From Bdellovibrionota bacterium (GTDB taxonomy: Bacteria > Bdellovibrionota_C > UBA2361 > OMII01), in NCBI GenBank assembly GCA_044345405.1, contig JBIJBE010000013.1, forward strand, positions 17,893 to 81,892: a stretch of 64,000 nt of DNA, in the 5' to 3' direction. The notes under the pieces are model-generated. The model did not search any database and was not told the DNA's origin. It saw nothing but the letters and a program-made list of their open reading frames with translations. This document shows, one piece after another, positions 2,158-16,748 of this stretch; the stretch's first letter is position 1, and each line of letters starts with the position of its first letter. The position numbers and the translations under genes are program-made.

Positions 2158-3060
2158 ATGTCAGTTGAAGTTCCAAGAAATACAGAGAAGATCGTGAAAC
2201 CATCCTGGTTGAAGGTTCGAGCTCCTGGCTCACCTGAGTATCTTGAGACCCGCAAAATCGTGAAGACCCTCAATCTTCATACGGTGTGCGAGGAGGCTCA
2301 GTGCCCCAATATCGGAGAGTGCTGGTCTCATCACACCGCGACCTTCATGATCATGGGTGAGCTATGCACCCGGAAGTGCCACTTCTGCTCGGTAAAGAAG
2401 GGAAGCGCCGATACCCTCCAACCTCTCGATCCGTTCGAGCCAGAGCGTGTCGGTATCGCGGTGAAGGAGCTTGGTCTTAAGCACGCGGTTATTACCTCAG
2501 TAGACCGAGACGATGTGGCGGATAACGGCGCTCAACACTTCCTCAAAACCGTGAAGTCGGTTCGTACACACGCTCCAGGGTGCAAGATCGAATTGCTCAT
2601 TCCTGACCTGAAGGGGTCTCGCGCAGACCTCGAGACGATCCTCAGCGCTAAGATCGATGTGCTTAATCACAACGTAGAAACCGTGCCTCGTCTCTACAAG
2701 AAAGTTCGCCCAGGCGCAGGCTACATTCGGTCCCTTTCGATCCATCGTTGGGCTAAAGAGATCGATCCATCCGTAGTCACCAAGACCGGCATCATGGTCG
2801 GGCTCGGCGAAACGAAGGATGAGGTATTACGCTTGATGGACGATCTTCGCGCCATAGACATAGACGTTATGACGATCGGGCAATACCTTCGTCCAACGGA
2901 ACGACAACTTCCGGTCCGGGCCTTCATCACTCCTGATGAATTCAAGGAGTATGAAGAGGAGGGAATCAAGCGTGGCTTCAAGTTTGTCGAGTCAGGGCCC
3001 TTCGTTCGCAGCTCGTATCACGCTTGGAAGCACACCGCGGATATCGCGGTACGAGAGTAG
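2158..3060 (+). CDS. lipA: Lipoyl synthase
   Basis: CEEAQCPNIGEC auxiliary-cluster motif, CTRKCHFC radical-SAM motif, C-terminal RSSY. Confidence 0.97.
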   Translation: MSVEVPRNTEKIVKPSWLKVRAPGSPEYLETRKIVKTLNLHTVCEEAQCPNIGECWSHHTATFMIMGELCTRKCHFCSVKKGSADTLQPLDPFEPERVGIAVKELGLKHAVITSVDRDDVADNGAQHFLKTVKSVRTHAPGCKIELLIPDLKGSRADLETILSAKIDVLNHNVETVPRLYKKVRPGAGYIRSLSIHRWAKEIDPSVVTKTGIMVGLGETKDEVLRLMDDLRAIDIDVMTIGQYLRPTERQLPVRAFITPDEFKEYEEEGIKRGFKFVESGPFVRSSYHAWKHTADIAVRE

Positions 3061-3067
3061 CAACTAA

Positions 3068-3802
3068 ATGGCGGCCATGAGCGTTACTTCCAGCGACCAT
3101 CGCGGCGAACTGTACCTTATTCCCAACCTCCTCGGCGAAACGGCTCTCGACTCATCTCTTCCACCGGTCATAGCGACGATTACCGCCTCCATCTCTCACT
3201 TCGTGGTTGAAGAGGAGAAATCGGCGCGGCGCTTCATTAAACTTCTCTGTCCAGATCGTGTCATTCGGGAGCTCTCCCTCCAGGTACTCAACGAGCACAC
3301 GAAGCCTCACGAAATCGATGCGCTCACAGCCCCACTCCTTCAAGGCCATAACGTGGGGATTATCTCGGAGGCTGGATGCCCCGCTATCGCGGATCCTGGC
3401 GCCGAACTCGTCCGTCGCGCGCACGAACTTGGCATCGCTGTTCGTCCCCTCGTAGGCCCCTGCTCGATGACGCTTGCCCTGATGGCGTCCGGTTTTAACG
3501 GGCAACGGTGGCGGTTCGTAGGCTATCTCCCGATCGAAGGGGGCGCTCGTAAGGACACGATCCGCGCTCTGGAAAAAGATCTCTATGAACATCAGGAAAC
3601 TCAGATCGTGATGGACACTCCGTATCGCAATCAGAAGCTCTTTGAGGAGCTCCTCACGACATGCAGACCCGAGACCCGTATCTGCATAGCGTCTGCCCTC
3701 ACCACCGAACAGGAATCGATAGCGGTTCGCTCGGTACACGAGTGGCGTGCCATGGGATTCACAGTACCCAAATCCCCGGCGATCTTCCTCTTGGGTCGAT
3801 AG
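3068..3802 (+). CDS. Tetrapyrrole-methylase-family SAM-dependent methyltransferase (RsmI/YraL-like)
   Basis: LYLIPNLLG, ISEAGCPAIADPG, PLVGPCS..LALMASG, F.GYLP and TPYRN motifs. Confidence 0.85.
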   Translation: MAAMSVTSSDHRGELYLIPNLLGETALDSSLPPVIATITASISHFVVEEEKSARRFIKLLCPDRVIRELSLQVLNEHTKPHEIDALTAPLLQGHNVGIISEAGCPAIADPGAELVRRAHELGIAVRPLVGPCSMTLALMASGFNGQRWRFVGYLPIEGGARKDTIRALEKDLYEHQETQIVMDTPYRNQKLFEELLTTCRPETRICIASALTTEQESIAVRSVHEWRAMGFTVPKSPAIFLLGR

Positions 3803-4170
3803 CGGTCACGCGTCCTCAAGGACGAGGCACTTATCCCAGAAAAATAAGCATCTTACCCACCGTTTCTTACCCACGGCAGGGTTCCAACTTGGCTCCAGAG
3901 GTAGTAAAACACCTTGTACTTTGAGGTGGGCTCAGACGACGCATCGTTAGCGACGCGTTACCGCCCGGAACGAAGTGACGTAGCCGTAGGGTACCGATAC
4001 ATGTCGTCTATCGCGCCTTCTCAAACTCTGGCCATACTCTCACGGAGATCTCTTCGATCCCGCGCGCTCTCTTTCTCTTTCTCGCCTCGATTCCGGTCCC
4101 CCTCGTTCCCGCCTACTTCCTCGGATCTCATTCATTCCCGGTATCGCTGTACCCCTGAACGACGAACCGC

Positions 4171-7100
4171 ATGAAGCGTATCTCTGGAAACATCCTTGCT
4201 CTATTCGGACTCATCCTCGGTTTGGTGAGCGGGCTTGGGGTCGTTACGCTTAAACGATACATCATCGGAGAGATCGTCCAAGCCCTTAACGAGGAGGTGG
4301 CGACATCGTGCAAAACGTGTTCGCTCTCATATGACTCATTCTCGCTCTCGTTCTTAACTCTCTCGGGCAAAGTTACGGGCGTCAAACTCCTCGACAACGG
4401 GACCCCGAAGCTCACCTTTGACAAGATAACCGCGACCTTCAGCATCAACGAAATCCTCGATCAAAAGGTTTACCTTGAGACCCTCATTCTCTCGGATGGA
4501 CACGCTGATGGTGTGGGACCCGACTCCCCCACCTTCCGCTTCATCGAACAGATAACGTCACCCCTACCACCGGAGCTCGCCAACCAGCCGCGATGGCGCG
4601 CGATCCTCAACAACCTTGAGATCCGAACGACCTCGCTTCGAGAATCGTTCGGGATGAGCGAGCTGTATGGTCACAACCTCTCCCTCTTTGTTAAACGGAT
4701 CGGCGAGGAGTTCGTTATTCTTCCTGAGCTTAAAGACCTTCGCTACCGTTCGTTCCTCAATGAGGAAAAGACAGAGGTGCAGGAGCTCCCCCTGGGCCAA
4801 TTAACCGGATCCGTGGTCATCGAAGAGAATCAAGCCGTCTTCAACGGATTAAAACTTGGGCGAGATATCTCAACGGTCGATCTCAAAGGAGCCGCGGATA
4901 CCGCGCATGGGGACGCGCTATCAGGTAGCGCGGCGTACACTATCGACGCTCAATATGTTGGGATCCCCTCGTGGCTTCAAGGTCTCCTGACGGGAACCGG
5001 ATCGCTGAAAGGAACACTCGGAAGCCCCATCATTGAAGGCTCGCTGACCCACGCGGAATCAGCGCCACTCACCCTCGCGTTCCCTCACGCGTCACCAGTC
5101 AAGTTGTCATCCATCAAAGGAGACCTCTCGGTCGACGTCAATCACGGAGACCCTGTTGTAACCCTCCGAAACATCGCGGGAACCGGGGACAAATCAAAAT
5201 TGACCGGCACTCGACCACTCGTATTCTCTGATGAAGGGCTCTCCGCTGGATTTGACGTAGCACTCCCCTCGTTCACCTATGGTCCGTTCTCAGTACATGA
5301 CGCGTCCGCCACTATTTCGGTGCGACCCAGTGGAAAAGACACCATCACAACCTTTGTCGTTCAAGCCGCGGATCTTAAAGTTCAAGGAACCTCTCTTGGA
5401 CCGGTAAAGATTAACCTCGCCCTTGAGCCGCGTGGCATCTCGGTAAAGGTTGATTCTAGTGACCCTCGATACGGAACTCTTCGTTGGGACGGGTTCATCG
5501 ATACTGTTGGAGCGGAGCCCTTCCTCAAAGATGGAAAGCTACTCCTTGAGAACTATCGCTATCCCCAAACCAGCCCACCGGATCCCTCTCGCCTTAGTCC
5601 GATTCAACTCACAACCTCACTACCACTCTCTGGTCCTCTCGATCTCGCCAAGCTCGCGGGAGAAGGCCCCACAACAGTCGCGATTCCAGATTTTGGTCTT
5701 GGTCTCTCGATGAGCGGCAAAACAACGCTCAAGGATGGCAACCTCCTCGTGAACCTTCCAACATCCACGCAGCAGGCCTCGATGAATCTGAAGCTTGATG
5801 TGGCGCGAACGTTCAACGGCAAGCTACAGATGGCGCTACCCGCCTCTCCGCTCTCCAGCTTTGTTCAGGAGGCTGACTGTGGCGTCATCGACGCGTCTCT
5901 CGATTACAACTTCAGCATGTCCGCTCCACTCGGAGGCTCAGGCAACCTGATATTGGGAGACTTCTATGTAGGATGCGAGCCGTACGTTCTTCGCGTTCCT
6001 AAGAACACGACCTTGCCGATAACAGTTGGCGCGCTCCGATTTAAAAATACCCGTCTCTCGAGCGGAGACACGGCGCTCATTCTCGATGGGTCTCTTGGTT
6101 TCGAGCCGGGGTTCGATCTCTCTCTCACCGGAGATCTCCACCTTAGCTCCCTTCTCCCTCTTCTCCCCTCCGTCGATAACTTACGGGGACTCCTCTCCAC
6201 CAAGGTCTCTATCAAAGGACCTCTCGCCATGCCACGCTTCTTAGGAACGGCTGCCCTCTCTGATGGAGAGCTCGCGGTCGCGTCACCCGACATAGGGGCC
6301 CATGATGTTAAGGGACGTTTTGTTCTTTCCGAGGATACGATCAAGATAGACAGTTTGACGGGCTCGGCGAACTCCGGCTCCTTCGTGGTAAAGGGAAGTC
6401 TTGTCCCCTTTAACTGGCCGAACTCTCGCATGACCGCCGAACTAAAGGAGGTCACGATTGAGCCCGCGGCGGACGCCTCTATCACCTTCTCAGGCAACCT
6501 CGCTCTAGGCCCGAATAAAAATAAACACCAAACGCTCTCGGGAGACATCGGAATCGACTTCGCCGAGATCTCCAAGGATTTCGATCTCAACAAGATCCTC
6601 GTTCAAACTATCAAAGGGTACTTCATTCCCGCGCGCGTCCAGCCTCAGATCAGTAAGAAGCCGGTCTCGCTTGACCTCGACGTAAAATTCTCCGCGCCTC
6701 GAAATATATTCGTGCTCACCCCTTTCTTCAGCGCGGAACTCAACGCGAACATTTACGCGGGTGGCACCACAGCGGACCCCGCGCTCAATGGCTCGATGCA
6801 ACTTTTAAGTGGATGGGTTGGACTTAAAGGAAATCGATTCGACGTCACATCAGGAAGTCTCACCTTCAAGCCAGGCTCATTAACTCCTACCATTGAGATC
6901 GCGAGCGAGGGGAATCTTCGAGCGCCAACTGGTGAGAGCGTGCTCGTGATTCTTGAGGCGTCCGGTCCCCTCACCGCTCCTCGCATCGCGCTGTCATCTG
7001 ATCGCGGACTGTCGCAAGAAGATCTCTTGCTCTTAATCACCTCCTCGCGGTCACTCACAGGACGAACGATGGCGAATCGGGTGGGAAATCAGTTCGCGCA

Positions 7101-9897
7101 AGACCAGCGATACTTCCTTTCCGAGGACTCGTTCAGCAGCGTTGAGGCGTTCTTCCGAAACCTCACCAAGATCGACACCCTCTCCTTCGAACCAACCTAC
7201 AATCCCTATACCGGTCTGGTAGAGCCGGCCGTCGTGGCGAAAAAGACACTGACGCCACGATTCGCGTTCGTCGGAAACAGCCTCTTTAGTAGCGTCAGCA
7301 ATTCAAAGGTAGGCGCGGTGTACAACCTCACACCGAATCTCGACGTCAACGGATTTATCCAGTCTGTGAGCACACAGCAAAACCTTATCTTAAGTTCAGA
7401 TCTGACCTATACCATTCTCGCCGAACAAGCGGTTCTGGTGGATATAAAGGTTCAAGGCGCGGATCGAACGGATGAGCAGGATATTCTTAGCGCCGCTCGT
7501 ATCGGTTCGGATTCACGAATACAAAACAATCCGGAGAGCCTGGCGACCATCCAACGAAACATCACCAGCTACCTCCACGATCAGGGCCTTCTCGGGGCGA
7601 CGGTGGATGTCTCCTGTCGCCTAGCCGATCATTTCTGCAAGCAACTCCTGATTACGATTAACGAGGGGGCCCCCTTTACGATCGGAGAGACGCGCGTAGA
7701 GGGTAACACCCTCCCTGATACGATCACTTCTATCATGAGGTCTGTGGCCCCCCCCGGAACCGCGGCGCTTGGATCTGTAACCCAGCAGCTTGAGCGAAAA
7801 CTAGTACTGGCGTTACGAAATGAAGGGTACATAGCGGCTCGAATAACACCTCTCTACGTCCATACCGATACGCCTCATACAGTTGATCTCGTCGTAAAGA
7901 GCGACCTACGGGAACCGATATCGTTCAAGTTCTCGGGAAATACGGTTTTTACCGACGAACAGTTCCTCGACTCTATTGAGCTCTTTTCTCGAAAGCGTCC
8001 GTTCGGAAACAATACCGTCAAATTGCTAGTTCAAAATATCGAGCAGATGTATCAGGCCGCCGGATACCTTTTCGCCCAGGTCTCCTACACCGAGGATCGC
8101 ACTGATACACAACGACTCGTGTACACCATCACCATCTCTGAGGAAGCTCAAACTAAGGTGCGAGAGTTAAAGCTCGTTGGCAATGACTCACTCTCGGAGA
8201 AAAAGATTAAAAAGGAGATGCGAGACCTCGGCCTCACCGAGCAAATTGAGCTCCTGAAGCCCACCTACGCTATTCCAGCTCAACTTGAAACACTCAAGAC
8301 GATCATCGAGACGGTCTATCAACAGGAGGGGTTCCCCAACGTTCAAGTCTCCTACACAATAGAGCCCGTTGAAAACGGCACCGCTCTCGACATCAACTAC
8401 CACGTGGTGGAGGGAGAGCCTCTGCGAATTCAGAGCCTTTCCGTCAAAGGCTTTCCGGGCGACATCAAGATTCGAGAAGCGCCTCCGACGCCAGCCTCCT
8501 TGCCAGCAATCAACCAATACATCGAGCATCTTGTGGCTCAACTCGAAGAAGAGGGCTTCATGGCGCCGACTATCGATGTCGACCCCTCACCTGACACCGC
8601 GCACGTCGACTTCTTGATAGATCCAGGGCCTCGTTCAATCATCTCATCGGTGACCGTTGAGGGCCTCTCGCTCATCGATGAGTCAGTCGCCCGTAAATAC
8701 ATCCTTCTTGAGCCAGGCAAGCCCTTCCGCACCGAGGATGTGAACGCTTCCAAACGCGAGCTCCTTCGCTCCGGCCTCTTCTCCCGGGTGGAGGTAGTGC
8801 CAAGTGACGGCTCCTTCGACCATCCAAAAGAGGCGATAACAGTACGCCTCGCCGAGCGAGCGCTTGAGACGCTGGAGGTGGGAACGGGCGCCAATTCAGA
8901 GTTCGGGCTCCATGTGTTCGGGGAAGCGGTCGATAAGTCGTTCTTCGCTGATGGACGAACCCTTTCAACGCGAATCGACACCTACTTTGATCAAGCTCAG
9001 ATTAATCCGAATGGATCCAGCGCTATCAGTCAGGGATTCGCGAACGTACGGTACATGGACCCGTTCTTCCTCGGCTCGCAATACGCGCTCACCGAGGAAT
9101 TGCGTTTTCAACGCCAAGAGCTTTCTACGCAGGAATTCAATCTGGATCGTATGACCTTCGCGTCCTACCTCTTCAGACAGTTCGAGTCACGAGTCACCTT
9201 TACCGGAGGTCACTCCCTCACCCTCGACAACTTGAACGATGTAAATCCTGGCGCGGTTATCACTCCGCTCGACACGGGCCATGTTCGGTTAAGCTTTCTC
9301 TCCGGCTTGTTGAAGTTCGACACCCGCGACGATCCCCTCACTCCTCACAACGGGTACACATTCACGGTCGAGCCAAAGCTCTCATTCCAGCAGATAGGAT
9401 CAGAGGCTAACTTCGGCGGAATCCTCTCTAAAGCGACTGGGATCGTTCCGTTGGAGAGGATCCTCTCGCCTCGATTCTCTCTTGGATTGGGTCTATCAGG
9501 TGGGATCGCGCAACCGTGGGGCGACACGGTGGGAATCCCTATCACCCAGCGATTCTATCTCGGTGGTCGTACAACCGTTCGCGGATTCAAGGAGAACTCG
9601 CTTGGTCCTCTGGGCGATAACGGAGCGGTCATCGGTGGAGACACCCTCCTCATGGAGAAAAACCAGTTCCAATACCTGGTGACGGACTCCTTCAGTACAC
9701 ACACCTTTGTCGATATCGGCAACGTGTTCCTCCGCCACGAAAGCTTTGACCTTGCGGACCTCCGCTCAAGCACCGGCTTCGGATTCCAGTACATATCCCC
9801 TATCGGTCCTATCGGTTTTGACGTGGGGTACCCACTCGATAGAAAACCAAACGAGGATGTGTATCGGATTCACTTCTCCGTCGGTAGTACCTTCTAG
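4171..9897 (+). CDS. TamB (AsmA-like/DUF490) fused to POTRA repeats and an Omp85 (BamA/TamA-type) beta-barrel
   Basis: N-terminal TM anchor; long Gly-rich beta-repeat region; DUF490-like block (GGTTADPALNGSMQL...LSSDRGLSQEDLLLLI); about six POTRA-like repeats; barrel motifs RFYLGG.TTVRGF, SPIGPIGFDVG and C-terminal FSVGSTF. Confidence 0.85.
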   Translation: MKRISGNILALFGLILGLVSGLGVVTLKRYIIGEIVQALNEEVATSCKTCSLSYDSFSLSFLTLSGKVTGVKLLDNGTPKLTFDKITATFSINEILDQKVYLETLILSDGHADGVGPDSPTFRFIEQITSPLPPELANQPRWRAILNNLEIRTTSLRESFGMSELYGHNLSLFVKRIGEEFVILPELKDLRYRSFLNEEKTEVQELPLGQLTGSVVIEENQAVFNGLKLGRDISTVDLKGAADTAHGDALSGSAAYTIDAQYVGIPSWLQGLLTGTGSLKGTLGSPIIEGSLTHAESAPLTLAFPHASPVKLSSIKGDLSVDVNHGDPVVTLRNIAGTGDKSKLTGTRPLVFSDEGLSAGFDVALPSFTYGPFSVHDASATISVRPSGKDTITTFVVQAADLKVQGTSLGPVKINLALEPRGISVKVDSSDPRYGTLRWDGFIDTVGAEPFLKDGKLLLENYRYPQTSPPDPSRLSPIQLTTSLPLSGPLDLAKLAGEGPTTVAIPDFGLGLSMSGKTTLKDGNLLVNLPTSTQQASMNLKLDVARTFNGKLQMALPASPLSSFVQEADCGVIDASLDYNFSMSAPLGGSGNLILGDFYVGCEPYVLRVPKNTTLPITVGALRFKNTRLSSGDTALILDGSLGFEPGFDLSLTGDLHLSSLLPLLPSVDNLRGLLSTKVSIKGPLAMPRFLGTAALSDGELAVASPDIGAHDVKGRFVLSEDTIKIDSLTGSANSGSFVVKGSLVPFNWPNSRMTAELKEVTIEPAADASITFSGNLALGPNKNKHQTLSGDIGIDFAEISKDFDLNKILVQTIKGYFIPARVQPQISKKPVSLDLDVKFSAPRNIFVLTPFFSAELNANIYAGGTTADPALNGSMQLLSGWVGLKGNRFDVTSGSLTFKPGSLTPTIEIASEGNLRAPTGESVLVILEASGPLTAPRIALSSDRGLSQEDLLLLITSSRSLTGRTMANRVGNQFAQDQRYFLSEDSFSSVEAFFRNLTKIDTLSFEPTYNPYTGLVEPAVVAKKTLTPRFAFVGNSLFSSVSNSKVGAVYNLTPNLDVNGFIQSVSTQQNLILSSDLTYTILAEQAVLVDIKVQGADRTDEQDILSAARIGSDSRIQNNPESLATIQRNITSYLHDQGLLGATVDVSCRLADHFCKQLLITINEGAPFTIGETRVEGNTLPDTITSIMRSVAPPGTAALGSVTQQLERKLVLALRNEGYIAARITPLYVHTDTPHTVDLVVKSDLREPISFKFSGNTVFTDEQFLDSIELFSRKRPFGNNTVKLLVQNIEQMYQAAGYLFAQVSYTEDRTDTQRLVYTITISEEAQTKVRELKLVGNDSLSEKKIKKEMRDLGLTEQIELLKPTYAIPAQLETLKTIIETVYQQEGFPNVQVSYTIEPVENGTALDINYHVVEGEPLRIQSLSVKGFPGDIKIREAPPTPASLPAINQYIEHLVAQLEEEGFMAPTIDVDPSPDTAHVDFLIDPGPRSIISSVTVEGLSLIDESVARKYILLEPGKPFRTEDVNASKRELLRSGLFSRVEVVPSDGSFDHPKEAITVRLAERALETLEVGTGANSEFGLHVFGEAVDKSFFADGRTLSTRIDTYFDQAQINPNGSSAISQGFANVRYMDPFFLGSQYALTEELRFQRQELSTQEFNLDRMTFASYLFRQFESRVTFTGGHSLTLDNLNDVNPGAVITPLDTGHVRLSFLSGLLKFDTRDDPLTPHNGYTFTVEPKLSFQQIGSEANFGGILSKATGIVPLERILSPRFSLGLGLSGGIAQPWGDTVGIPITQRFYLGGRTTVRGFKENSLGPLGDNGAVIGGDTLLMEKNQFQYLVTDSFSTHTFVDIGNVFLRHESFDLADLRSSTGFGFQYISPIGPIGFDVGYPLDRKPNEDVYRIHFSVGSTF

Positions 9898-11230: not shown

Positions 11231-12316
11231 ATGTTTAGTACAATCGTAACAGATGATACTGGATCAAAGTTAGCGGTCCTGGAAAAGGTTAAATGTCTAA
11301 ATGACATTAACGCAACGACCGACATCATCGTCGTGAGCGCCGACGCCCAGCCTGCCGAGTGGACAACTGGCATCTGGATTCAAGCTCCAACGATCGTTGC
11401 CGGCATGGCTAAGGCCGCTCAATTAGCGGCAAGCAAGCGCATCATCGTGATGAGCTCAGCAGTCGCCTTCGAGCCAGCTGATCTTGCGCGACTTGTCGCG
11501 GAGCTCGACACTCGACAGATTCGTGAGCATACCATCGTAACCGCTCGTACCGAGTCTGGCTTTGTTCAGATCCCTGACCTTAGCGCTGAGCAAGTTCTTA
11601 ACTCTATCAGCAAAACAGATATGTGGCCTCTCGTCGTCGTCGCTACGAGCCGCTTCGCTCTTAGCATGATCGGAGAGGAAGACGCTTCGTCCGCTACCGA
11701 GTACCTCGCGCAAGCGTTGGTTCGCTCAATCGCGGATGGAGATACCATTCGGCACTCAACCTTGATTGACACGGCGATCTCGGGGGCAGACCTCTCCGCC
11801 ACCAGCAAACTTTCGGATGGCGCTCGCGCTCGTATCTTGAAAGCTGCCGTTGACGCTTTCAATATCGAGGAGCTCTTCCCGAGCCACAACTGGATCTCGT
11901 ATAGCCAAGAGAGCGCCGCCGCTTCGTATCACTCCATCGCGGCTCTGTTCCTCCGATTCGGAGACCCAGAGTCAGCTGCTGAGTGCCTCGATTGCAGCGA
12001 GCGTCTTGAGGAAAGCCCACGGTACTTCGCGCTTCAGGGCCTTATCCACAAGCAAAAGGGTGAGACACTCGGAGCGGTAGCGAGTTTCGTATCAAGCCTT
12101 CAGTGCTACGAGGCTCGTAAGGTTGATAACGGTAAGCACTATATCACCTTCAAGCCAAGTAATCTTGAGGTCATCAACTCGCGATTAGTTGACGGTTTGA
12201 ACGCTCTCAACAAGCGGGACAATGACAGCGCCCTGAACTACTTCTCAGAGGCGGTGTTCAATTTCGACCCGTTCTACGCGGAGCACGGAGTCCTTCCTTC
12301 TGGAAAGACCCGCTAA
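11231..12316 (+). CDS. Hypothetical protein: degenerate GT-A-like N-terminus plus TPR-like C-terminus
   Basis: 361-aa ORF. The N-terminal pattern resembles a GT2 fold without DxD; the C-terminal helical repeats (YHSIAALFLRFGDPESAAECL; YFALQGLIHKQKG) are TPR-like. Confidence 0.55.
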   Translation: MFSTIVTDDTGSKLAVLEKVKCLNDINATTDIIVVSADAQPAEWTTGIWIQAPTIVAGMAKAAQLAASKRIIVMSSAVAFEPADLARLVAELDTRQIREHTIVTARTESGFVQIPDLSAEQVLNSISKTDMWPLVVVATSRFALSMIGEEDASSATEYLAQALVRSIADGDTIRHSTLIDTAISGADLSATSKLSDGARARILKAAVDAFNIEELFPSHNWISYSQESAAASYHSIAALFLRFGDPESAAECLDCSERLEESPRYFALQGLIHKQKGETLGAVASFVSSLQCYEARKVDNGKHYITFKPSNLEVINSRLVDGLNALNKRDNDSALNYFSEAVFNFDPFYAEHGVLPSGKTR

Positions 12317-12529: not shown

Positions 12530-14467
12530 ATGGTCTCTCTTGTTGCTGATACCGACGTAGCGACGATATCTTCACTCTTAAGCCTCTCCGTCGCGCTCAT
12601 GGGTCTGTTCGCCGCCCTTATCTGCCGACGCGGCGATACCTCAATTTCGCTCAACATTTGGTTCTCCCTCGCTTTTAGTTCCCTCTCGCTCATCACAACC
12701 GATTATCTTCGTTGGGTATGCGTATCCGTAGGAGCGGTCTGCGCCATCGCCCATCAGCGGTGGCGACGACATCAGTATGAGGTTGTCGCCCTTAATTTCC
12801 AATCCGCGCCACTGTTTATCCGCGCCATGGGCGTGATCTTGATATCGTGGATCCTTCTTTATCGCCTTGACTCAAATTTCCTTCCGCCTCTTGTCTGGGA
12901 AGCAACCACAATCAACAACTTTTTCGCCGAGCTTTCGAGCGTTACGGTATGGAATGCCCTTCGGACACGCCTTCTATGGGCTCAAGGATTACTCAGCGAG
13001 GGAGATCGCTCCCTTCTCTATGGATATCCGACCCTTTATCTACTGAAGTTTAAAAGCTCACTCATCAGCCTCCGAGTAATGTCCGCGCTCTACTTTCTGG
13101 GGACAGCTCTCCTTCTCGCCGCCTTTTGCAAGCGCTTCTTTCATCCGACTATCGGATTGGTTGTGCTCTTCACCTTTGGTCTTAATGAGGCAGGCCTACT
13201 ATTTGGCCGTTACGCCAGCTCTATCGCCGCCACACTCTTCAGTGTCGCTGCGGCACTGTACGTGTGCGCCGCGCTGATTGCGAGACCCTCGGTCAGTAAA
13301 TCACTGGGAGCCGTCCTGCTCCTTTACATCGCGACCCTCGGGTACGCGCCCGGTCGGATCACGGTGCTTATTCTTCTCGGCATGACCGCTTTTGGAATTA
13401 TGTGGAACGAGGCTCAGAAGAGATCCTCTCGCCTTCATAGCTCGCTTGTGATCTGCGCTGGCGTATTGCTTGTGTGCACGGCGCAGTATCGGGCCGGACG
13501 TGTTCACTCGTTCGCGTTCGCCCGAGGCGAGCAACTCTCGATGATGATGAACAACGGCTTCTGGCCAGCGCCTGTATTGGACAAATGGAGGTCTTTTAAA
13601 TCGGAGGATAGACCACCTCACGTCCTCGACTACATCTCCTTCGCAAAAGAACTTGTCACAACAACCACGATTCCCGAGCTGCAACAGCTACTCTCTCCAT
13701 TTGACCAGGCTCCTTCCCGAGCACGTCGATTCTCCTACGACCCCTTGAGGCTTGAACTCTACACCAAGCCACTCTATCCCTTTATGCTTTTGGGATTGCT
13801 GATGGCCTCGCGCTACACGACCCGATGGATTCATGCCACCTTGCTCCTTTGGCTCGTTGTAGGGGTCGTACCTGTGCTCCTTACAAATCGAGTCGACTCC
13901 TACCGAACAAGCATGTTCATTATTCCCCTCTCGATCTGGCTAGCGGTGGGAATCGCGGAGGCTATCAATGAGGCGCGACGCGCTCGTATCCCTCGCGTTC
14001 TTGTCACCTGCGTTCCACTCGCGGCAGCGCTCGCAATCACGCTCCATCGCACCGAATCTCTTCATTTCGCCGGTGTTTCACCTTCAGCGACGGATCTCGT
14101 CATTAGCGAAGTTTCGCCGCGAATCCTTCACAACGCCACCGTAGGTGTCGAGGCCATAGAATTCAGAACACGAGCTCTCACGAATGTACTCCTCTTACAG
14201 AGAGAGCAGCGCGGTTGGATTAATCCCCGAATCGTCATGCCCGAAGACACGTACCAAGAACTGGTGAGTACCGAATCCTCAGAGGAGCACGAGAAAGCAT
14301 TCGAAAAACTTGTTGAGGACCTCACCAATCATAGACCACTCATCGTAGGGCCCTACCACGTCATGACGCCCACCCTAGAGGCGTTGTCACGTCGGGGCTT
14401 CAAAGTCTGGCCCCTTCGAGTGCGTCATCTGGAATTGGCGTATGTTGAGAACGGGGCCCCGCGCTAG
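12530..14467 (+). CDS. Multi-pass membrane protein, GT-C (ArnT/PMT-like) glycosyltransferase candidate
   Basis: Many TM segments; LRVMSALYF...AAFCKRFF and late DSYRT...IIPL.IW patterns typical of family-39/ArnT-like proteins. Confidence 0.55.
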   Translation: MVSLVADTDVATISSLLSLSVALMGLFAALICRRGDTSISLNIWFSLAFSSLSLITTDYLRWVCVSVGAVCAIAHQRWRRHQYEVVALNFQSAPLFIRAMGVILISWILLYRLDSNFLPPLVWEATTINNFFAELSSVTVWNALRTRLLWAQGLLSEGDRSLLYGYPTLYLLKFKSSLISLRVMSALYFLGTALLLAAFCKRFFHPTIGLVVLFTFGLNEAGLLFGRYASSIAATLFSVAAALYVCAALIARPSVSKSLGAVLLLYIATLGYAPGRITVLILLGMTAFGIMWNEAQKRSSRLHSSLVICAGVLLVCTAQYRAGRVHSFAFARGEQLSMMMNNGFWPAPVLDKWRSFKSEDRPPHVLDYISFAKELVTTTTIPELQQLLSPFDQAPSRARRFSYDPLRLELYTKPLYPFMLLGLLMASRYTTRWIHATLLLWLVVGVVPVLLTNRVDSYRTSMFIIPLSIWLAVGIAEAINEARRARIPRVLVTCVPLAAALAITLHRTESLHFAGVSPSATDLVISEVSPRILHNATVGVEAIEFRTRALTNVLLLQREQRGWINPRIVMPEDTYQELVSTESSEEHEKAFEKLVEDLTNHRPLIVGPYHVMTPTLEALSRRGFKVWPLRVRHLELAYVENGAPR

Positions 14468-14579
14468 AGAGCCCCAGGGAGGCCCCTCTGACCCTTTTGA
14501 CGGCCGTGCCGAACAATTCTACTATACGAACGCGGCCCGGGCCGGAGAGAAACACCACCCGAAAAACACACATAATATC

Positions 14580-16748
14580 ATGAACTTAGCTCTTTCATTG
14601 GCTGCGCTCCTCGCCCTCCTCGGCCTCTCTGGGGGATCGTGGTATCTGTGGTCGCTGACCCCTCCCGCTCTCATTCCCTCGGGTAAGTACATCGGCGCCT
14701 GCGCGGTGGGGCTTCTGGTCGTAGGACTCGTGTATTCCCTCTTCATTCGACGCCAACGCCCGCGCCTCGCGGATTTTGCCTCCCCTTTGGTTTGGAGCTT
14801 TGGGCTGGTCCTCATCTTTCTCTCGGCCTGGCTCTGTCGGCCATATAGCTTCTTTCAGGCCCCTTGGTTCAGAAAGGAGATCGCCCTCGCCGCCGTGGTG
14901 GCGTACGCGATGACGTACACCTCGTGGAGACGATTCCTCGTGGCGCTTCCTCTTATAACCTCTCTTTTGAGCGTAGTGACCTTCTTCACCGAGTCAGCGG
15001 GACGACTCCTCTTCAGCGATGATCACGCCATGTTCATCTTTCGCCTTAAGCTCCTCAAGGAGAACTTCCCCTTCATTCCATTCTGGTCTCCACTATGGAA
15101 CGGAGGGTTCGACGCTCGGGATTTCTTCGCTACTGGGGCCCTCAACGCGTTCCTCATCTCAAGCCCGCTCGTGTATCTCTTTCCTATCGAGTCGGTGTAC
15201 AACCTCATCATCGCTGGCATCCTCTTCGCTCTAGTTCCGGGCGCGACCTACGCCGCCGCGCGCCTCATGAACGCGGAACGGGTCGTAGCGGCCGTGAGCG
15301 CTGTTATCGCGATGAGCTCGAGCCTCTTCTGGTATCGGTGGGCTCTTAAGTACGGCACGATCGGATTCGTCGTGAGCACCGCTCTCATGCCGCTCACGAT
15401 CGCCTACCTCCTTCGATTCCTGACGGGTAAAACCCTTTCCCTCCGCGATATCACGCTTTTCGCTCTCATCGCGACGCTTACCATGCTGTGGTCTCCCTCG
15501 GGCATCGCGCTTCTTCCACTCGGACTGCTCGTACTCCCGAAACTTCGAATGATAGTAAGCTCTCGACGACATCTGCTCACCGCCGTTATTATCTTGGCGC
15601 TTAACCTTCCGTGGATGTCGATGATGTGGAAGGTTTCAGGGGTTCAACGCTTCCTCAACTCCGAATCGACCAATCAGGTATCGCGCACAACGCAGACCGA
15701 GGAGACATCAGAAGCGAAAAGTCCCTCAACCTATCGACACAAGTCTGAAGGAATCAACCTCAAGAAGAGCTTAAAGAACTGGCAGGAATCAGCCTGCTCA
15801 GCGAACCCTCTCGTAGTTGTACTCGCGATTCCCGCTATCCTCTCACTAGCGCGCCCCTACCGCCTCATCTTCGGCATGGTCAGCCTGTGGCTTGTGGGAT
15901 TGGGAACCGTCGGGGTCTCTCTCAAACCACAACTTGAGCTCGATCGAATGCTCGTGGTCGCCGGCGTTCTCGCCTCATTCCCACTCGCCACCTACATCGT
16001 CACGATGTTCGAGCGAAGCTCGCGGGACCAATTCCACAGACTCTCCGCGAGTGTTGTGGGTGGATTTCTTCTCGCCTCTCCATTCGCTATTCACGCCATG
16101 CTCACCAATCAGCTGTATGACAAGTACAACTTCGCGGAACCTGAGGTGGAAAAAATTAGTATGACCTTGGCGAACACCGCGAAGGATGGACGAGGGCTCT
16201 TCACAGGCTGCGTGCTCCACGAACTCAGCAACGGACACCTCGCGCCCCTTCCCTTGTGGTCAAACACACCCCTCATCGCCTCAAGCTATGCGCACAATAT
16301 TTGGCGGTATGAGCAACCTATTCCCGCGCCATTTTTGGAACAGGGAGATATCGGCATCGAACGTTTCTTCGATCTGATGAACGTCACCGTAGTGATGGCT
16401 CACGAGCCACAGTGGAGAAAATATCTCCAAGACCGGCCTGATCGCTACGCGCTCAAAGAGCACCACAAGAACTTCATGATATTCGAACGCCTTGGATACA
16501 CACCTTCGTATGTTCTTGAGGGTGAAGCTCGGGACCTCTCTCAGACCTCAAACTCCGTGACCCTCACGCCACTCTCAGAGCGAATCGTCCTTAAGTTTAA
16601 ATATTTCCCCTTCCTCACGGCCTCACACTGCACCGTGTCGCCATTTCAGGTTTCGCCAGACCTTCAACTCGTGGAGCTTTCGAAATGTCGTATAGGCGAA
16701 TCAACCCGCGTTGAAAGCGTCTCTCCGCTCAAGCGGTTATTTTCCTAG
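14580..16748 (+). CDS. Multi-pass membrane protein, YfhO/GT-C-like
   Basis: SDDH motif in the first loop followed by PFWSPLWNGG, many TM helices and a soluble C-terminal domain. Start moved to ATG 14580. Confidence 0.55.
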   Translation: MNLALSLAALLALLGLSGGSWYLWSLTPPALIPSGKYIGACAVGLLVVGLVYSLFIRRQRPRLADFASPLVWSFGLVLIFLSAWLCRPYSFFQAPWFRKEIALAAVVAYAMTYTSWRRFLVALPLITSLLSVVTFFTESAGRLLFSDDHAMFIFRLKLLKENFPFIPFWSPLWNGGFDARDFFATGALNAFLISSPLVYLFPIESVYNLIIAGILFALVPGATYAAARLMNAERVVAAVSAVIAMSSSLFWYRWALKYGTIGFVVSTALMPLTIAYLLRFLTGKTLSLRDITLFALIATLTMLWSPSGIALLPLGLLVLPKLRMIVSSRRHLLTAVIILALNLPWMSMMWKVSGVQRFLNSESTNQVSRTTQTEETSEAKSPSTYRHKSEGINLKKSLKNWQESACSANPLVVVLAIPAILSLARPYRLIFGMVSLWLVGLGTVGVSLKPQLELDRMLVVAGVLASFPLATYIVTMFERSSRDQFHRLSASVVGGFLLASPFAIHAMLTNQLYDKYNFAEPEVEKISMTLANTAKDGRGLFTGCVLHELSNGHLAPLPLWSNTPLIASSYAHNIWRYEQPIPAPFLEQGDIGIERFFDLMNVTVVMAHEPQWRKYLQDRPDRYALKEHHKNFMIFERLGYTPSYVLEGEARDLSQTSNSVTLTPLSERIVLKFKYFPFLTASHCTVSPFQVSPDLQLVELSKCRIGESTRVESVSPLKRLFS

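Follow-up and report, generated by a model that had tools for sequence, protein, structure and literature searches.

The current view is that TamB-type bridges deliver phospholipid to the outer membrane, and debate concerns how the far end of TamB is held there and whether the hybrid barrel that it forms with TamA is stable or transient. Here, we describe a gene that encodes a TamB-like protein and an Omp85 outer membrane protein in one chain. It lies on a 64,000-nucleotide stretch of DNA from a Bdellovibrionota bacterium (contig JBIJBE010000013.1 of assembly GCA_044345405.1, positions 17,893 to 81,892 of the forward strand), referred to below as the window. The partnership of TamA and TamB is already known, and the fusion extends this partnership rather than constituting a new system; its single-polypeptide state is what sets it apart from the variants described in Escherichia coli, Bdellovibrio and Myxococcus, spirochaetes, Bacteroidota, and chloroplasts, which are compared here on the basis of the available parts of the cited texts.

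E. coli's translocation and assembly module (TAM), represented in the PDB by structures 9xdc and 9xdd (PMC12800296; bioRxiv 10.64898/2026.03.22.713439), has in common with the fusion an inner membrane helix, a beta-taco rod, a C-terminal TamB domain with the same layout of helices and six strands (PMC12800296), and a 16-strand Omp85 barrel with POTRA domains. The fusion differs in being one polypeptide rather than two, in having six POTRAs rather than three, and in lacking a signal peptide on its Omp85 part. It also falls below the equivalog cutoffs for TamA and TamB, and its Omp85 half is nearer BamA by score.

In Bdellovibrio bacteriovorus, a TamB-like gene (Bd2494, DUF490) is followed by an essential Omp85 gene with seven POTRAs (Bd2495), and Myxococcus xanthus has the same order of TamB-like and many-POTRA Omp85 genes (MXAN_5764/5763) (PMC3983030). 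In both, the two genes are preceded by a tetratricopeptide repeat (TPR) gene (PMC3983030), whereas the fusion is one gene, and no TPR gene was found upstream of it in the window or at the loci of the six relatives that were examined. The comparison with Bdellovibrio follows the published description (PMC3983030) rather than sequence. Relatives in the window's own phylum in which the two parts are split share the Bdellovibrio layout and have one POTRA more than the fusion.

Among spirochaetes, TamB pairs with a BamA-like, many-POTRA Omp85 protein from an adjoining gene (BB0794/BB0795 in Borrelia and TP0325/TP0326 in Treponema), but these organisms have no BamA besides this partner and keep two separate genes, whereas the genome that carries the fusion has a second, canonical BamA and the pair is fused. 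The TamL-TamB pair of Bacteroidota likewise shows a lineage-specific N-terminal remodelling of TamB's Omp85 partner, although TamL has acquired a lipid anchor and remains a protein of its own (PMC12045153). Chloroplast TIC236 and TOC75 resemble the fusion in that an inner-envelope TamB homologue bridges to an outer-envelope Omp85 homologue, but they are separate proteins of a eukaryotic organelle. Omp85 proteins of the PlpD type offer an earlier case of a barrel that carries an additional functional domain, fused on its N-terminal side, although that domain is a secreted patatin lipase and not an inner-membrane-anchored bridge (PMC4104836).

A full-text literature search, with subscription journals and supplements outside its scope, found no description of a TamB-Omp85 fusion. 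By word search, fused TamB-Omp85 proteins are absent from the available text of PMC4494059, PMC12800296, PMC12045153, PMC4525385, and PMC6791001; the sole passage on fusion in that of PMC4104836 concerns BamA and BamB, and the sole use of "fused" in that of bioRxiv 10.64898/2026.03.22.713439 refers to colonies. Some members are already annotated as "TamB domain-containing protein" in databases.

A single open reading frame joins a TamB-like rod to a six-POTRA Omp85 barrel

A previous interpretation made from the nucleotides alone (the sequence-only reading) had proposed that an uninterrupted 1908-amino-acid open reading frame (ORF) carries an N-terminal membrane anchor, a TamB/AsmA-like rod, a DUF490-like domain ending in the strand LSSDLTYTI, about six POTRAs, and a barrel with a VRGF motif and a terminal phenylalanine. 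This anatomy was borne out in every part. The ORF starts with ATG and reaches its stop codon without an internal stop (Table 1), and its guanine-plus-cytosine (GC) content is level along the whole gene. Only residues 8 to 26 have the hydropathy of a transmembrane helix (Kyte-Doolittle score of 2.42; the runner-up reaches 1.33), and a hydropathy scan of the whole 1908-residue protein revealed neither a second transmembrane segment nor a signal peptide in its interior. The Omp85 part does not begin with a hydrophobic segment, i.e., it has no cleavable Sec signal peptide of its own, so for export it must rely on the signal anchor of TamB, which lies 1,080 residues upstream.

Pfam models recognized all three parts above their cutoffs. 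The TamB model (PF04357) scored 93.2 bits against a cutoff of 22.4, with profile positions 3 to 378 of 381 covered. The POTRA model (PF07244) scored 121.1 bits over four stretches, and the Omp85 model (PF01103) scored 142.7 bits at residues 1624 to 1908. In an alignment of 49 sequences, R1804 and G1805 of the VRGF motif are invariant, and F1908 is conserved in at least 90%.

Two AlphaFold2 models were built on this 49-sequence alignment. The model of the N-terminal half (residues 1 to 1120) has a predicted local distance difference test score (pLDDT) of 80.6 and shows one long helix (residues 6 to 46) followed by about 55 consecutive strands (residues 50 to 943). Its leading Foldseek matches were the E. 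coli TamB chains of the TamAB cryo-electron microscopy structures (9xdc_B and 9xdd_B; probability of 1.00), followed by the lipid bridge protein LPD-3, the crystal structure of TamB residues 963 to 1138 (5vtg), and a Vps13 fragment. The N-terminal half thus matches TamB/DUF490 both by Pfam and by fold. The model of the C-terminal half (residues 720 to 1908; pLDDT of 77.9; predicted TM-score of 0.61) has six POTRA units of the order beta-alpha-alpha-beta-beta (residues 1091 to 1562), from which the count of six derives, and then 16 barrel strands; it matched BamA chains (E value of 1e-39) and TamA (TM-score on target of up to 0.78). When the C-terminal 401 residues of the TamB part alone were compared with PDB sequences by phmmer, no match was returned; the fold search did recover TamB.

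The protein contains six cysteines in all, at residues 47, 50, 570, 602, 1149, and 1156. Conservation is complete for C570 and C602 and at least 90% for each of the other four; the spacing suggests three putative periplasmic disulphides, one by the membrane anchor, one in the rod, and one in the first POTRA.

Table 1. Features of the fused gene, with positions in the window
Feature	Position	Strand	Basis or remark
Whole fused tamB-omp85 ORF	4171..9897	+	1908 amino acids; full-length conservation in relatives
N-terminal signal-anchor helix, residues 8-26, predicted inner membrane	4192..4248	+	Hydropathy; AlphaFold2 helix 6-46
TamB/AsmA-like repeating beta-groove ("taco") rod, residues 50-943, ~55 strands	4318..6999	+	AlphaFold2, Foldseek
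Pfam TamB (DUF490) domain, residues 729-1081	6355..7413	+	PF04357
TamB C-terminal domain: three helices (949-999) and six beta strands (1003-1084)	7015..7422	+	AlphaFold2 secondary structure
Last TamB strand, residues 1072-1084, containing LSSDLTYTI (1074-1082, nucleotides 7390-7416)	within 7015..7422	+	
Fusion junction: last TamB strand, 5-6 linker residues (AEQAV), first strand of first POTRA	7384..7458	+	
Six POTRA domains: 1091-1164, 1170-1245, 1250-1323, 1329-1413, 1422-1484, 1490-1562	7441..8856	+	AlphaFold2, Pfam, Foldseek
16-strand Omp85 barrel, residues about 1566-1908, with terminal F1908	8866..9894	+	Pfam, AlphaFold2, Foldseek, conservation
Loop-6 VRGF, residues 1803-1806	9577-9588	+	

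The junction is intact and the fusion is fixed in one order

A trivial explanation would be that a sequencing or assembly error erased a stop codon or shifted the frame between two genes. The window stretch is contained in 24 lake water metagenome runs, none of which is an RNA run. Contigs of four of these that are not flagged as the possible source (X8, X9, X10, and X12) span nucleotides 7380 to 7450 with zero gaps, the single difference there being an A-to-G change at position 7444 in X12. The junction also lies within a single frame in most same-order genomes (85 of 91) and in over 120 divergent protein clusters. The artefact explanation is refuted by these data, and we leave it practically no probability. 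The single-ORF fusion is confirmed: its junction carries neither a stop nor an indel in the independent contigs, close and distant relatives across the order are fused as well, and the N-terminal half does match TamB.

The length of the junction is fixed, with two insert columns (from one sequence) between residues 1060 and 1110 in 49 sequences that reach down to 27% identity. D1077 (98%), T1081 (92%), and G1096 (98%) are among the best-conserved positions of this alignment, and the junction looks like a structured joint rather than a flexible linker or a processing site.

To survey the lineage, we ran a junction-spanning query (residues 900 to 1400) over 124 genomes of the class, 91 from the window's order and 33 from other orders. 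The 85 same-order genomes mentioned above have a single stop-free frame through the junction; among the remaining six, two have no match (62% and 87% complete), three have weak matches only, and one is cut by a contig start, and none of the six has a two-gene arrangement. An apparent split in another genome (G040) was rejected, as it consists of two contig ends and not of two genes. A search of whole genomes returned a match in all 41 of 41 relatives. Outside the order, 18 of the 33 genomes have the end of TamB and the start of the POTRAs in two adjoining frames of one contig. The fusion is therefore fixed in one order of uncultured Bdellovibrionota-like lake bacteria, whose sister orders retain two genes. 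A search with the scope of the phylum yielded only genomes of the same class, and the lineage seems to form a small group of phylum rank, with about 124 species in the searched collection.

One same-order genome of 1.8 Mb (G081; 92% complete) gave only a weak junction match (E value of 2.7e-4) and no match to a barrel query at 1e-30, and it is the sole fairly complete genome of the order with such a weak match. This small genome may have lost the gene or may carry a very divergent copy.

The architecture was also frequent in protein collections. By precomputed Pfam annotation, TamB, POTRA, and Omp85 occur together in 118 of the 120 homologues listed, and 90 of those listed are 1877 to 1950 amino acids long with 28 to 95% identity. 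Residues 720 to 1908 were searched against 1.84 billion cluster representatives (at 50% identity); among the best 150, 124 are at least 1700 amino acids long, and 121 of these 124 match without a break from the TamB domain to the end of the barrel. Hence, at least 121 protein clusters have the full architecture.

The fused gene derives from adjacent tamB and omp85 genes

We inspected six split loci. In each, a TamB frame of 1202 to 1387 amino acids (stop to stop) is followed by an overlapping or adjacent Omp85 frame of 869 to 1010 amino acids; Pfam confirmation was obtained for two of the six pairs. The split TamBs align to the fused protein as far as residues 1029 to 1069. The alignment of the split Omp85 proteins begins at fused residues 1083 to 1159, which correspond to their own residues 75 to 177, and their N termini consist of a signal peptide and then one additional POTRA-like unit, an offset that implies fusion without this signal peptide and first POTRA. 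As judged from these alignments, adjacent tamB and omp85 genes fused in frame to give rise to the gene, and a short TamB tail, the Omp85 signal peptide, and the first POTRA were lost in the process. With six POTRAs in the fusion, the split forms should have seven, the number reported for Bd2495 (PMC3983030).

In E. coli, TamA without POTRA1 cannot bind TamB (PMC4525385). Because the first POTRA is the one lost here, the covalent bond may, by analogy, have taken over from a noncovalent docking POTRA.

Alternatively, one chain could be translated and then cut near the junction after export, resulting in an ordinary two-subunit TAM, with the fusion serving cotranslation and stoichiometry only. 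Some envelope proteins, e.g., autotransporters, are processed after export, and such a cleaved precursor is compatible with present sequence-level knowledge. However, the junction is of fixed length, highly conserved, and predicted to form a strand, a short turn, and a strand; the protein has no internal signal-peptide-like segment; and a six-POTRA Omp85 protein released without its docking POTRA would lack what holds TamB in E. coli (PMC4525385). We consider cleavage to be quite unlikely.

A lipoyl synthase gene (lipA; window positions 2158 to 3060) lies just upstream of the fused gene, and lipA is also found upstream of a split pair (in genome G049); in a second fused lineage (genome G065, see below), the upstream frame has a lipoyl ligase domain and only a weak radical SAM match. 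The conserved lipA neighbourhood fits with a fusion in place. In these two relatives, the upstream frame (L029:8138-9757 and L035:9987-11801) resembles a LipB-LipA fusion: that of G049 has 540 amino acids and combines an LplA-B catalytic domain with a radical SAM domain, and that of G065 has 605 amino acids (radical SAM E value of 0.0017). Directly upstream of the fused ORF, a 368-nucleotide gap (window positions 3803 to 4170) contains no convincing gene and may hold a promoter or leader; two short ORFs in or near it (3661 to 3924 and 3914 to 4174) have no Pfam match.

Fusion probably occurred more than once

Fused genes also occur elsewhere, in one further lineage of this phylum and in a distant family of 2000 to 2500 amino acids. 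In the former, two genomes of another order (G065 and G066; GC content of 33 to 35%) carry a fused gene of 1881 amino acids in which a full TamB, including its tail, is joined to the same second POTRA. The latter comprises 23 proteins (P0099 to P0121) with identical domain order; 22 are 2037 to 2476 amino acids long, and one is short (P0107; 1190 amino acids). Clusters of 1345 and 1440 amino acids contain the same three Pfam families; the few recorded taxa are all Acidobacteriota.

For the phylogeny, a quick IQ-TREE analysis was run on the last 430 residues with BamA as the outgroup, and branch support was taken from the Shimodaira-Hasegawa-like approximate likelihood ratio test (SH-aLRT). The fused proteins of the order, together with a fused copy from genome G051, form one clade (SH-aLRT of 100), G065 and G066 are placed among the split Omp85 proteins (SH-aLRT of 94), and the distant P0099-P0121 family is a separate clade (SH-aLRT of 97). 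Since the junction sequences differ, repeated, independent fusion is likely for G065 and G066; in the approximately unbiased test, a single clade for all fusions within the phylum was not rejected (P = 0.375). In genome G051, a fused copy exists alongside a split pair (L032, G051:C3:4262-9910; L031, G051:C2). Its fused copy lies on a 21-kb contig of similar GC content (0.549 versus 0.566) and nests inside the window's order in the tree, and it could be a horizontal transfer or a misbinned contig.

Covariation points to possible docking of the TamB end on its own barrel

In E. coli TAM, the last TamB strand pairs with strand beta1 of TamA to form a hybrid barrel (PMC12800296). We looked for the corresponding signal in 200 fused sequences (effective number of 137), using alignment columns 1000 to 1091 and 1556 to 1908. 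A total of 59,684 inter-domain, seven-residue ladder windows were scored by mean-field direct coupling analysis (DCA) and by mutual information with average product correction (MI-APC). The top four windows by DCA (z scores of 5.6, 5.1, 4.8, and 4.7) share one antiparallel register, and the top five by MI-APC (z scores from 5.9 to 4.9) fall on that same register. It links residues 1080 to 1084 with residues 1566 to 1570, i.e., the final part of TamB's last strand with the beginning of barrel strand 1. This supports a predicted antiparallel arrangement of the two strands, like that of E. coli TamAB. Should this pairing hold, the six-POTRA arm would have both of its ends at the rim of the barrel and would form a closed loop.

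Prediction of a complex between residues 940 to 1090 and residues 1490 to 1908 gave a score of 0.33, with 0.00 for the best of three controls, and lends weak support to docking. The mark used is reached by 58 of 80 solved complexes and by 2 of 110 mismatched pairs; at scores of 0.60 or below, it is reached by just 7 of the 80 solved complexes and by both of the passing mismatches. The prediction runs showed at least 34% contact agreement and a partner pLDDT of at least 43. A similar complex has already been solved, so a pass may reflect memory.

The protein could instead be a linear chain without a hybrid barrel, in which inner membrane anchor, rod, POTRA arm, and barrel follow each other end to end and the POTRAs serve to bind substrate or simply as a spacer. 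In favour of such a chain, the TamB part of the fusion is shorter (1084 amino acids) than the split TamB frames, a difference for which a POTRA arm could compensate, and the support for docking from complex prediction was weak. Yet the strongest covariation of all scored windows connects the end of TamB with the beginning of barrel strand 1, and the six-strand C-terminal domain, which in E. coli is seated in the TamA barrel, is fully kept. We therefore regard the linear arrangement as unlikely.

The genome has a separate BamA and other AsmA-like proteins

The sequence-only reading had called for a check for a separate bamA gene, and the genome has one. Its three Omp85 genes encode a 770-amino-acid BamA, a patatin-Omp85 protein, and the fusion. 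The separate BamA scores 614.5 bits on TIGR03303, well above the cutoff of 297.15, whereas the Omp85 half of the fusion scores 270 to 272 bits, below that cutoff, and has six POTRAs and not the five of BamA. On the TamA model (NF047950), this half scores 129.6 to 133.2 bits, below the cutoff of 625, with six POTRAs instead of three. Given the separate canonical BamA, the fused barrel is best classified by sequence as a TamA-like paralogue, and the BAM (beta-barrel assembly machinery) complex would be available to insert a tethered barrel.

The fused Omp85 part might also be the housekeeping BamA with TamB attached, resembling the spirochaete arrangement. It does score higher on BamA models (272 bits) than on TamA models (133 bits), and the solved structures that it matches best by sequence are BamA chains. 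That the 770-amino-acid protein exceeds the equivalog cutoff while the fused half does not argues against such a BAM/TAM hybrid, as does the presence in most of the 41 relatives of a separate Omp85 match in a frame of about 750 to 860 amino acids. We consider this possibility very unlikely.

The TamB domain of the fusion is the only one in the genome. On the TamB model NF047952, the fused protein scores 30.2 bits, below the cutoff of 825, and by this measure the TamB half is a distant member of the TamB family and not an equivalog of proteobacterial TamB. A search with PF05170 and PF13116 found at least one other AsmA/YhdP-like ORF; two AsmA/YhdP-like frames of 664 and 748 amino acids (G000:C40:21605-23167 and C40:40970-41596) lie within 20 kb of each other. 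With these further frames, the fused TAM is not the only bridge-like protein of the genome.

The patatin-Omp85 protein (L003:1261-3522, reverse strand, in G000:C85) has 753 amino acids, with a patatin-like phospholipase part (RssA model, 127 bits) and a weak match to the Omp85 barrel. Judging by its domains, it is a PlpD-type fused Omp85 protein in the same genome as the fusion. Downstream of the fused gene in the window, three consecutive ORFs of 361, 645, and 768 amino acids (positions 11231 to 12316, 12530 to 14467, and 14442 to 16748) have no Pfam match at an E value of 0.001; those of 645 and 768 amino acids look rich in hydrophobic segments and may encode large polytopic membrane proteins.

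A proposed covalent bridge between the membranes

By analogy with the described TAM, we infer that the fused protein works like TAM, as a trans-envelope bridge that would bind and transport phospholipid. The N-terminal helix would remain in the inner membrane as an uncleaved signal anchor, and the rod of about 900 residues would span the periplasm as a lipid bridge of the TamB/AsmA type. At the outer membrane, the six-strand C-terminal domain of TamB would dock on the Omp85 barrel of the same chain; the last strand of this domain would run antiparallel to barrel strand 1 and give a hybrid barrel like that of E. coli TamAB, and the six connecting POTRAs would then make up a closed periplasmic loop. 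The separate BAM complex would fold the fused barrel into the outer membrane. Through this structure, phospholipid would move from the inner to the outer membrane, possibly with some help to the assembly of certain outer membrane proteins.

Several points weigh against this interpretation. All members are known from metagenome-assembled genomes, from sequence alone, and sequence cannot tell a lipid from a protein substrate. The equivalog cutoffs for TamB and TamA are not reached, which makes functional equivalence to the proteobacterial TAM an extrapolation. Another AsmA-like protein is present, so the fused gene need not encode the main lipid bridge. The docking geometry depends on covariation in a small alignment, to which both scores were applied and in which the ladder windows overlap; the upper, membrane-embedded half of the strand pair is too conserved to covary, leaving about six residue pairs to carry the signal. 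Complex prediction added weak support, with a poorly folded partner. With these points taken into account, we regard the fusion as a real, conserved, covalent variant of the TAM machine that probably operates by the proposed mechanism.

A more far-reaching version of this bridge model is tentative, and we would put it at somewhat less than even chances. In it, a single chain would be integral to both membranes, with an alpha-helical anchor in one and a complete beta-barrel in the other. Its own TamB end would be zipped to barrel strand 1, the six POTRAs would make a topologically closed ring in the periplasm next to the lipid groove, and the arrangement would have arisen repeatedly, each time through the same loss of the Omp85 signal peptide together with the docking POTRA. 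If this version is true, a covalent bond can fully substitute for a docking domain, and TAM is a permanent 1:1 hybrid barrel rather than a cycling complex.

A natural fusion throughout an order is genetic evidence of an obligate 1:1 unit made up of TamB and its Omp85 partner. It shows that TamB's C terminus needs no free end and suggests that the docking POTRA is dispensable once the halves are joined. The fusion also poses a biogenesis problem, as a protein of about 200 kDa would be anchored in the inner membrane while BAM folds a barrel about 1,500 residues downstream, and it offers a ready-made single-chain TAM for structural work.

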